In this document: positions 12,576 to 30,015 of the stretch, in pieces
Layout of the letters: each line of letters begins with the position of its first letter
How positions within the stretch are numbered: the stretch's first letter is position 1
Source of the DNA: Gammaproteobacteria bacterium
GTDB lineage: Bacteria > Pseudomonadota > Gammaproteobacteria > UBA1113
NCBI GenBank assembly: GCA_021156165.1
Contig: JAJNBM010000004.1
Span: 1 to 59,736, forward strand
Direction: 5' to 3'
DNA: 59,736 nucleotides
Notes under the pieces: model-generated
What the model saw: the letters and a program-made list of their open reading frames with translations, nothing else
Database searches by the model: none
Told to the model about the DNA's origin: nothing
Position numbers and translations under genes: made by a program

Positions 12576-12815
12576 ATGATCATGGCACAAAATAATGCCT
12601 TGTTTAACACGGATGATAATGATCAAGAAATTGTTCAAGAACGCTTAGATGAATTCTTTTCTTCTGTCATGGGGTTATTGCACAGTAATCCTGCTCAACC
12701 TAAACGTAATGCCAAAGAAATGGTCGAAATGCGCCGACAAGTGGAAGAGATTCTGATCAAAAAGCAAACTCGAGAATTGTATGAAGATACATTGCTAGAA
12801 ATGGAAATTAGCTAG
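12576..12815 (+). CDS. small acidic hypothetical protein
   Basis: AAGGAG SD directly upstream; 79 aa with helical C-terminus MRRQVEEIL..RELYED. Confidence 0.75.
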   Translation: MIMAQNNALFNTDDNDQEIVQERLDEFFSSVMGLLHSNPAQPKRNAKEMVEMRRQVEEILIKKQTRELYEDTLLEMEIS

Positions 12816-12911
12816 GGCTAACGTTCAATAAGGAGTTGTATATTATGAGGCATGGATATTTCGTAGGCAAGTGGTATTCTTAAAATTATTGTGTTTTTTC
12901 TTACAATGTCC

Positions 12912-12939
12912 TTGCACTTTCCCCAAAATAGTCTATAGT
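12912..12939 (+). promoter_or_regulatory. sigma70-like promoter for the candidate structured RNA or dam leader
   Basis: TTGCAC-16 nt-TATAGT, ending ~8 nt before the first predicted helix. Confidence 0.55.
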
Positions 12940-12946
12940 TAAAATA

Positions 12947-13263
12947 GAGGGTTCACTTAAGATTTCCTTAAGGTATCTGTTAGAAACCTTAACTGTTGAG
13001 GAGCTTCGCTTGGTAAAATGGCTTTTTGCTGACCAATCTCCTTATTATGTGGGGTCTACGCAATAGGGGTTATCGCCAGAACCTCCGAGTCTAGACCAAC
13101 GATTTTCAACCCTGCCCTGGGTATTTAATCTGCGGGGCTGTGGTAGTGGTGTGCTGAGTACTTTTTCATTATCTCCGACACCACTTCCTAAGCACTCAGT
13201 AGCCGCTGTCGCAGCTCCGTAGATTACCTTCAAAGCATCTTTCCTTCTAGCTTGCGAAAGTGC
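12947..13263 (+). ncRNA. candidate large structured non-coding RNA, family unknown
   Basis: closing helix 12948-12953/13108-13113 encloses three hairpins; then a 36-bp hairpin 13126-13226 with 8 G-U pairs that only form on the + strand; then a hairpin at 13235-13263. Confidence 0.65.
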
Positions 13264-13312
13264 GTAAAAATTCTTATTATGTAGACATTTGAGCCTTGAG
13301 TAAGTAACTAGT

Positions 13313-14128
13313 ATGACAAACCGCATTCGACCTTTCTTAAAATGGGCTGGTGGTAAATTTAAGCTGAGCCATTGGATCAGCCAGCATTTACCTCTAGGTT
13401 CGCGCCTAATTGAACCGTTTGTGGGTGCAGGCGCTATATTTTTAAACAGCTCCTTTGATCATTATCTTTTAAGCGACTGTAATCCTGATCTCATCAATTT
13501 ATATGAATGTTTACAGAAAGAAGGCGTGCCTTTTATTGATTTTTGTCAATCCTTTTTTACTGTGGCTAATAATACTGTGAAGCGTTATTATCATTTACGG
13601 CAGCGCTTTAATTGCAGTACTGATTTACACGAAAAAGCAGCGTTGTTTTTATATTTAAATCGCCATTGTTTCAACGGCTTGTGCCGTTACAATAATAAGG
13701 GGCATTTTAATGTACCCATGGGAGAATATACAAGACCTTATTTTCCTTACAATGAAATGCACGCTTTTCATGAAAAAGCACAACGCGCTATTTTTAGCTG
13801 TGAAGATTTTACCAGCATTATGCGTAAAGCATGCGCTGAAGATGTGATTTATTGTGACCCCCCCTACTATCCTCTCAGCAATTCTGCCAGCTTCACCCGT
13901 TACCACCTTTCTGATTTCACACTGGATAAACAAATAGTATTAGCAGATCTGTGCACAGAATTACAGCAAAAAGGAATGCGTATTATTGTTTCCAATCACG
14001 CCATACCCGAAACTCGGCGTTTATACAAACAGGCAAAAAAATTAGTCTTTTGTGATGTGCAGCGTACCATTAGCGCTACCGGCCATCAACGCGCAACCGT
14101 TAAAGAGCTGTTGGCCTTATATTTATGA
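13313..14128 (+). CDS. dam: DNA adenine methylase (Dam family)
   Basis: FLKWAGGK, IEPFVGAG, LNRHCFNGLCRYN, YCDPPY. Confidence 0.93.
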   Translation: MTNRIRPFLKWAGGKFKLSHWISQHLPLGSRLIEPFVGAGAIFLNSSFDHYLLSDCNPDLINLYECLQKEGVPFIDFCQSFFTVANNTVKRYYHLRQRFNCSTDLHEKAALFLYLNRHCFNGLCRYNNKGHFNVPMGEYTRPYFPYNEMHAFHEKAQRAIFSCEDFTSIMRKACAEDVIYCDPPYYPLSNSASFTRYHLSDFTLDKQIVLADLCTELQQKGMRIIVSNHAIPETRRLYKQAKKLVFCDVQRTISATGHQRATVKELLALYL

Positions 14129-26972: not shown

Positions 26973-27053
26973 TTTTCAACATTGGTGCACAGTATATTAT
27001 GCCCCATAACGGACTTTATTAAGACTATCTTAATAGCGCGTTATTTACCCCAT

Positions 27054-29849: not shown

Positions 29850-30015
29850 AAAGCGGGTTTATCCTTTTTTCAATTGGTTTATGTGTGAATAAGCATAGAG
29901 TATATTAGGGGAAATAGCCAATTTTATATTCGGTTTAGAGCTCTTTTGCTAGGCTATAGACCATTTTATTAAAGCTAGCTTAATACAGTTTTCTGGATCG
30001 CTATGTACAGCAATG

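Follow-up and report, generated by a model that had tools for sequence, protein, structure and literature searches.

The window analyzed here, a 59,736-nt stretch of DNA, represents positions 1 to 59,736 of contig JAJNBM010000004.1 in a 1.58-Mb, 92% complete assembly of a Gammaproteobacteria bacterium (GCA_021156165.1; labeled G000 in the comparisons below). On its plus strand, upstream of dam-queG, it contains a predicted structured RNA gene of ~284 nt (12947 to ~13230). The gene is preceded by a putative promoter, P1 (12912-12939), which reads TTGCAC (12912-12917), a 16-nt spacer and TATAGT (12934-12939), and which scores 8/12 against the consensus and was hence not listed by the promoter scan. 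By geometry, transcription would start at 12946/12947, 7-8 nt past the -10 hexamer, right where the 5' stem begins. Folding and covariation delimit a 5' domain (12947-12997), a three-way junction of an outer stem and two hairpins, the first of which coincides with a consensus match to the PmrA-type box, CTTAA-GA-TT-TC-CTTAA(G) (12956-12972). Then follow, in the same orientation, a middle hairpin (12997-13044; from fold and alignment), a linker that varies in the alignment (13045-13107, including a hairpin at 13053-13097), a small hairpin of four pairs, ACCC/GGGU (13109-13122), and a long hairpin of ~36 bp with a 34-nt C-rich apical loop (13126-13226, loop at 13160-13193), the last defined by a covariance model and pair statistics. 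Outside the RNA lie P2, the promoter of dam-queG (13252-13280, plus strand; from promoter scan and conservation), and dam itself (13313-14128, plus strand; a D12-class N6-adenine methyltransferase, Pfam PF02086, E 4.4e-60).

An initial annotation had read 12947-13263 as a ~315-nt, strand-specific structured RNA with a promoter of its own. A structured RNA on the plus strand held up, while the proposed extent did not: what is conserved is the 51-nt 5' domain plus a ~120-nt 3' hairpin module, and RNA length ranged from 181 nt (G002) to 628 nt (G007) across the nine genomes that carry it. The hexamers, helices and hairpins of that annotation were all found in place, among them AGGGTT at 12948-12953, AACCCT at 13108-13113 and the long helix 13126-13150/13202-13226, which goes on past a 1-nt bulge, and the minimum free energy (MFE) fold (RNAfold) gave back the hairpins. 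When both strands were compared with dinucleotide shuffles, the MFE of the plus strand was -108.5 kcal/mol against -85.0 ± 5.3 kcal/mol in 100 shuffles (z = -4.41; 0 of 100 as good), and that of the minus strand was -89.9 kcal/mol, a value that 3 of 100 shuffles matched (z = -2.09).

No Rfam covariance model matched the window or the homologous loci, in line with the initial annotation, which saw no hallmark of several known RNAs: searching the whole window at the gathering score against Rfam 15, whose families include 6S, tmRNA, RNase P, SRP, riboswitches, ribozymes and OLE/ROOL/GOLLD, returned zero matches, the region itself at E<=10 returned only microRNA-precursor noise (best, mir-1263, 26.9 bits versus a cut-off of 95), and four homologous loci at E<=1 returned none. 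ARAGORN found no tRNA or transfer-messenger RNA (tmRNA). Three specific candidates were rejected: a tmRNA-like acceptor stem (GGGGCUG/CAGCUCC) in the long stem of G000, as its third-pair G-U is not kept in relatives and ARAGORN was empty; a divergent 6S RNA, as the 6S RNA of the genome lies elsewhere (C19:62044-62208, 69 bits); and a CsrA sponge of the RsmY/Z, CsrB or CbsR12 type, as GGA motifs are not enriched (zero to three in eight of nine genomes, below or near the expectation from composition, and seven versus 10.6 expected in the 628-nt form of G007).

Relatives were labeled G002-G019 and so on; the family comprises 21 genomes, 10 of which form the genus of G000, and the order holds the same 21. 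By BLAST, the stretch is single-copy in G000 and, among 60 relatives, matched seven of the nine other genomes of the genus, always upstream of dam, plus two weak short matches in other genera of the family (G012 and G013; 25-40 nt, E ~0.005), of which one spans P1 and the RNA start (12890-12946) and the second lies within the middle hairpin (13004-13028). No match was found in 40 genomes of other families. Covariance models were then used for the 3' hairpin (R1) and the 5' domain (R2). R1 scored 125.6 bits in G000, 86-138 bits in seven relatives and 32 bits in G002, whose copy is diverged but has the same loop motif; it had no hit in G004 and none in the other 11 genomes of the family, save two weak hits in G019. 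R2 found one strong copy each in 9 of the 21 family genomes, with a distribution identical to that of R1. Apart from R1 hitting its own copies in antisense and a 26-bit match of R2 in G006, each model gave a single strong hit per genome. Thus the RNA is present in 9 of the 10 genomes of its genus, one copy per genome at a syntenic site, as expected of a gene and not of a miniature inverted-repeat transposable element (MITE).

The two G019 hits were discarded as RNA copies, being hairpins that resemble repetitive extragenic palindromic (REP) elements and lack the loop motif. They represent a repeated ~135-nt hairpin (L024:1501-1640 and L026:1501-1634; arms ...CUCCUCGGAAUUGAGUCUGCGGCGUUGUUGC...) located just past gene ends, with a partial third copy nearby, i.e., a REP-like family of another genus. 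A metagenome scan with the loop pattern yielded 13 loci, none with an R1 hit, and these were set aside as chance matches. The genus consists of uncultured Legionellales-like bacteria, and the RNA is specific to it, with no copy found in the other 11 family genomes.

Strong evidence for selection on RNA pairing came from the long stem. Over 32 pairs in nine genomes, 95.4% of cells were paired, and 12 pairs showed changes on both sides, a number that none of 500 shuffles reached (3.7 ± 1.4) and that compares with three or fewer in slid controls. Of the 281 cells of the long hairpin, 212 were Watson-Crick, 56 G-U and 13 other, only five of them A-C; pairing was 95.4% when read on the plus strand but 77.2% when read on the minus strand. 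The strand asymmetry of G-U pairs, proposed initially from the single sequence, therefore holds across the nine genomes. Moreover, in the small hairpin preceding the long one, three of the four pairs are compensated (e.g., GCCC/GGGC in G009).

Covariation was also found in the outer stem of the 5' domain. This stem is GAGGGUU/AACCCUC in most genomes and encloses two hairpins; eight of the nine genomes, folded alone, give the same three-way junction, the exception being G000. In a model-guided alignment of the nine genomes, 92% of the cells of the 5' domain are paired. Four of the seven outer-stem pairs show compensatory change, versus 1.1 ± 0.7 in shuffles (1 of 500 as high), as in GAAGGUU/AACCUUC, GAGAGUU/AACUCUC and GAGAGCC/GGUUCUC, and these four are all the compensatory pairs of the domain. 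A different enclosing helix had been proposed initially, between 12948-12953 and 13108-13113, but found no support: in the other eight genomes the partner of the 5' arm lies nearby, 45 nt downstream, and those with an altered 5' arm (G009, G007 and G002) compensate at the local site and not at the distal one. The initial annotation paired the 5' arm of G000 with AACCCU at 13108-13113 because the local 3' arm has decayed there.

Among the hairpins described inside that helix, 12968-12974/12986-12992 is conserved; the middle one, 12997-13044, persists in hairpin form in most genomes, though divergent in sequence and absent from G002; and 13053-13097 is not conserved, falling in the variable linker and being specific to G000 and its closest kin. 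The linker carries inserts of 90-350 nt in G003 and G007. More generally, G+C-rich palindromic, MITE-like inserts of 75-350 nt lie inside or beside the RNA gene in G003 (L004), G007 (L007) and G009 (L006); one example, GCGAGGCGGCAAG...CTCGAGCACCAGGAGTG, is tandemly repeated in G007.

Upstream of the RNA, the -10 hexamer of P1 (TATAGT) is identical in nine of nine genomes, and a TTGC-type -35 is kept in eight, G005 having none. This conservation and its position argue for P1 being the gene's own promoter, as the initial annotation had it. With fold, strand asymmetry and covariation pointing the same way, we consider it very probable that the element is a real, strand-specific structured RNA gene.

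The 3' end of the RNA was judged from the conserved structure and from a hint at transcription. Only two sequencing runs contain the stretch, one being the probable DNA source and the other a metatranscriptome available as contigs. In the latter, run X2, a 179-nt contig from a close relative covers 13087-13230 (plus strand) and a further 35 nt upstream. Over 144 nt it shows 10 differences; of the nine listed, four (13143, 13144, 13147 and 13150) convert a G-U of the long stem to a Watson-Crick pair. The contig stops at 13230, 4 nt past the base of the stem, which weakly hints at a stable species ending near there. An end near 13230 is more likely than one at 13263, where the initial annotation had placed it after a last hairpin (13235-13263); that hairpin is not conserved and overlaps P2.

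The apical loop is strongly conserved: its core, CUCCGAC-N3-ACUUCCU (CUCCGAC..ACUUCCUAAG), is identical in eight of nine genomes, with CUCCAAC in G007. The loop contains CCUCC, the anti-Shine-Dalgarno core, and the near-perfect ~36-bp helix beneath it is a plausible RNase III substrate. Ungapped complementarity scanning of G000 for loop targets gave mostly matches to the non-conserved AU-rich part of the loop, and searching the genus for 18-mer complements gave hit counts like those of the reversed control; the sole recurring 18-mer match, an internal coding stretch (...TINEVVSD...), repeats only through orthology and was rejected. Duplex energies between the loop and the leaders of 14 box-controlled genes were -5.6 to -19.8 kcal/mol, versus a background of -12.4 ± 4.0 kcal/mol; the csrA leader (-19.6 kcal/mol) lay near the 5th percentile, but through the non-conserved part of the loop. 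That the loop acts by base pairing is a tentative idea, which we consider rather less probable than its opposite.

A feature that the initial annotation had missed is the PmrA-type box inside the 5' domain: 12956-12971, 17 nt downstream of the -10 of P1, is an exact match to cTTAA-N2-TT-N2-cTTAA. This PmrA consensus for Coxiella and Legionella, with its place just upstream of the -10, is given in bioRxiv 10.1101/679134. The RNA-gene box also fits the half-sites CTTAAG/xTTAAT at 5-bp spacing that are described for Salmonella and Klebsiella in PMC3973317. Its TTAAG cores are invariant in nine of nine genomes, and in the RNA the sequence takes the hairpin form CUUAAG-AUUUC-CUUAAG (CTTAAG-ATTTC-CTTAAG in DNA).

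The same box marks promoters across the genome. Consensus sites number 14 in G000, versus a mean of 0.45 (range 0-2) in 20 composition-preserving shuffles, and the looser pattern TTAAK-N6-TTAAK has 52 strand-specific hits, of which 15 have TAnnnT exactly 10 nt downstream, versus 0-6 at other spacings (0-21). At 10 box sites, the first downstream open reading frame encodes CsrA in one case (E 3e-26), a Ras-family GTPase domain in another (E 3e-30) and a protein without Pfam family in eight; the latter show the profile that would be expected of secreted effectors. The regulon sites, tandem boxes with a -10 hexamer exactly 10 nt on, are found at C11:21979(-), C19:21287, C19:53633, C24:12934(-), C26:2911(-), C38:25151(-), C59:40938(-), C60:5836(-) and C71:5907, and, with a looser box, at C19:71709, C19:74461, C65:34760 and C71:7998(-); these regulon boxes precede csrA, the Ras-like GTPase gene and many large orphan genes, the latter being effector candidates. 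In the window, further TTAAK-N6-TTAAK sites lie at 29967-29983 (minus strand, followed by TATAGC after 10 nt) and at 27019-27035 (both strands).

A candidate regulator is also present. G000 encodes a single OmpR/PhoB-type (Trans_reg_C) regulator, of 226 aa, whose best NCBIfam match is PmrA (232 bits), followed by QseB (223 bits), and which is adjoined by a QseC/PmrB-like kinase (C19:62395-64493; L066:65-2163, minus strand). The regulator/kinase pair lies within ~200 nt of the 6S RNA gene. Coxiella PmrA, too, was at first annotated QseB (PMC4117601), and bioRxiv 10.1101/2024.09.25.615009 reports that csrA transcription in Legionella requires PmrA.

The box of the RNA gene differs from these sites in its setting. 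A -10 hexamer after it is absent in all nine genomes (in G000 the hexamer at 10 nt is GAAACC, not TAnnnT). The box would occupy about +10 to +26 of the transcript with no -10 after it, and thus has the geometry of an operator, not that of an activator site. A divergent promoter using the box on the minus strand was considered and judged improbable: TAnnnT stands 9 nt on in six of nine genomes (by eye), but the TT spacer fails on that strand, and among the TTAAK-N6-TTAAK hits of G000 a spacing of 9 was seen once versus 15 times for 10.

The rival that survives best takes CUUAAG-N5-CUUAAG for an RNA hairpin only, its likeness to a PmrA box being incidental and the RNA outside PmrA control. Since CTTAAG is palindromic, any tandem pair of it forms a hairpin; the element sits within a covarying stem; and it lacks the -10 that follows other boxes. 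Yet the match extends to the central TT of the spacer consensus, in a genome where chance predicts 0.45 sites, and the half-site cores stay invariant in all nine genomes while neighboring stems change. In addition, a scan of 185,579 species genomes with the 23-nt box pattern returned 12 stretches: eight are members of the genus, one lies inside a coding region of an unrelated bin, and in the remaining three, from other bins (Gammaproteobacteria, uncultured Legionellales and Candidatus Berkiella sp.), the pattern serves as a promoter element preceding a -10 hexamer. On balance this rival is possible, though we think it clearly the less probable side, and for the narrower question of whether the box is a functional PmrA site the sequence leaves us evenly divided.

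A second alternative is that the RNA is a long structured 5' leader of dam-queG, so that P1 transcripts run into dam and the structure or PmrA tunes the methylase in cis. In its favor, dam-queG lies downstream in all nine RNA-bearing genomes, no terminator-like site follows the long hairpin, and in most genomes little DNA separates the RNA from dam. Against it, the conserved promoter P2 sits between the two, starting 26 nt past the long hairpin (TTGCGA-17-TATTAT in G000, TTGCAT-17-TACCAT in seven aligned relatives); inserts of 75-275 nt part the RNA from dam in G009 and G002; and the stop of the X2 contig at 13230 argues weakly in the same direction. All 21 genomes of the family have dam, and nine have the RNA: it was not found in the 11 genomes outside the genus, nor in G004, a member of the same genus (97% complete) in which a 79-residue protein gene, ~117 nt, P2 and dam follow one another and neither RNA module occurs anywhere in the assembly. 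The RNA is therefore not an obligatory dam leader, since G004 keeps P2 and dam without it, and the link to dam that had been suggested initially now looks weak; we consider the leader explanation unlikely.

The initial annotation had offered a tie to the small acidic protein just upstream as well, and this fares no better: G004 has the protein but lacks the RNA, and in G002, which has both the RNA and dam, an unrelated gene on the opposite strand occupies the upstream position of the small protein. The protein in the window (12576-12815, plus strand) has 79 residues and no Pfam or NCBIfam family; at 58-80% identity it stands upstream of the RNA in five of eight relatives. The interval between RNA and dam in G002 contains a long inverted repeat, TTACACGTAAAATTCA ... 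TGAATTTTACGTGTAA (L025:1690-1780), and its arms resemble the conserved P2 spacer (GCGTAAAAATTC) of other genomes.

Less probable still is a division into two units, a short 5' RNA or promoter-proximal element (12947-13044) and a separate or processed RNA of ~180 nt made up of the linker hairpin and the long hairpin. The linker does tolerate its 90-350-nt inserts, cleavage might occur in an AU-rich single-stranded stretch at 13043-13050, and the two ends of the X2 contig, near 13052 and at 13230, fall on domain borders; contig ends, however, are not RNA ends. Moreover, no conserved promoter precedes the long hairpin, only 11-20 nt separate the two modules of G002, too little for a second promoter, and both modules are present together or missing together in 21 of 21 family genomes. 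It is this proximity in G002 and this invariable co-occurrence that lead us to treat the two modules as one gene. Finally, a decaying palindromic mobile element (MITE or REP) or a DNA-level palindrome, which the MITE-like inserts in G003, G007 and G009 and the weak R1 matches to REP-like hairpins in G019 might recall, is highly improbable given one syntenic copy per genome, 56 G-U versus five A-C cells, 12 compensatory pairs, an invariant loop and promoter, and the lack of the loop motif from the G019 hairpins.

The best explanation at present, to which we give about an even chance, is an independently transcribed, genus-specific structured small RNA that is gated by PmrA. A sigma-70-type P1 would start the transcript at the foot of the 51-nt three-way junction; the variable linker would follow, and the transcript would end in the ~36-bp, G-U-rich hairpin displaying its C-rich unpaired loop. 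Phosphorylated PmrA, bound to the box, would stand in the path of RNA polymerase and most likely shut the gene off once the virulence regulon of PmrA, with csrA and the effector-like genes, is on. The loop would be the probable working surface, acting in trans by pairing with G-rich, Shine-Dalgarno-like mRNA sites or by binding a protein.

Several observations weigh against this explanation: i) the other sites of G000 lie upstream of a -10, and the RNA-gene box alone lies downstream of one; ii) the box hairpin never varies, which suits a DNA site but leaves the RNA hairpin neither supported nor contradicted, and the box could be a purely RNA-level motif arising from the palindrome CUUAAG; iii) the 232 bits of the regulator are below the NCBIfam PmrA cut-off of 330, and its QseB score is below cut-off as well; iv) the terminator scan found no intrinsic terminator after the long hairpin, making read-through into dam possible; v) start, end and strand of the transcript are deduced from sequence, and the X2 contig, which is from a relative, could derive from DNA; vi) the complementarity and duplex scans in G000 and the genus gave no convincing loop target; vii) the 3' arm of the outer stem in G000 is degraded to AACUGUU; and viii) the metagenome scan gave no extra homologs, so that all covariation comes from nine related genomes.

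Compared with known systems, the RNA gene shares parts with several. The type IVB secretion regulon has PmrA as its master regulator, and PmrA-box promoters of Legionella pneumophila and Coxiella burnetii were reportedly defined by Zusman and coworkers in 2007; the same tandem motif marks ~10 promoters of G000, including those of csrA and effector-like genes, whereas the box of the RNA gene stands within the transcript, 17 nt past the -10. RsmY and RsmZ of Legionella, which carry a LetA box and are controlled by LetAS, are likewise small RNA genes linked to a virulence two-component system in a csrA-bearing organism, but the RNA here has no GGA-rich loops and no Rfam match, and has a PmrA-type box in place of the LetA box. 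C-rich loops pair with Shine-Dalgarno regions in RNAIII and RsaE of Staphylococcus and RepG of Helicobacter, and a stable stem presenting an unpaired C-rich loop with CCUCC is common to these and the present RNA; the stem here is unusually long (~36 bp), the loop is 34 nt and no target was found.

A further likeness by description, as distinct from sequence, is to CbsR12 of Coxiella burnetii, a small RNA of a Legionellales-type intracellular bacterium with a PmrA-like site, over 150 nt long and with multiple hairpins, for which the authors invoke RNase III decay (bioRxiv 10.1101/679134). According to the same source, CbsR12 differs in binding CsrA via its motifs and in having its site upstream of the -10 and only approximate. 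In the literature on Berkiella noncoding RNA and on PmrA-linked small RNAs in Legionellales, as far as its accessible portions go, no description of the present RNA was found, nor did the available parts of the Legionella and Coxiella PmrA literature describe direct repression of an RNA gene.

The RNA thus appears as a new family within a well-known class, that of structured small RNAs of bacteria linked to two-component systems, whose unusual feature is a regulator box inside a transcribed and structured 5' end. A more far-reaching possibility, which we hold to be improbable though worth stating, is a double role for one 17-bp sequence, as PmrA operator in DNA and as 5' junction arm in RNA; the RNA would then be the missing RNA arm of the PmrA/CsrA circuit, made only when PmrA is off, its CCUCC loop either silencing mRNAs of Dot/Icm effectors or regulators at their ribosome-binding sites or capturing a protein. 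What is known of regulation in the uncultured kin of Legionella and Coxiella comes from analogy alone, and the recovered PmrA-type regulon of ~10 promoters offers a practical predictor of effectors in this lineage. If the box works, the gene would represent a case of direct PmrA repression and of a small RNA under PmrA control.

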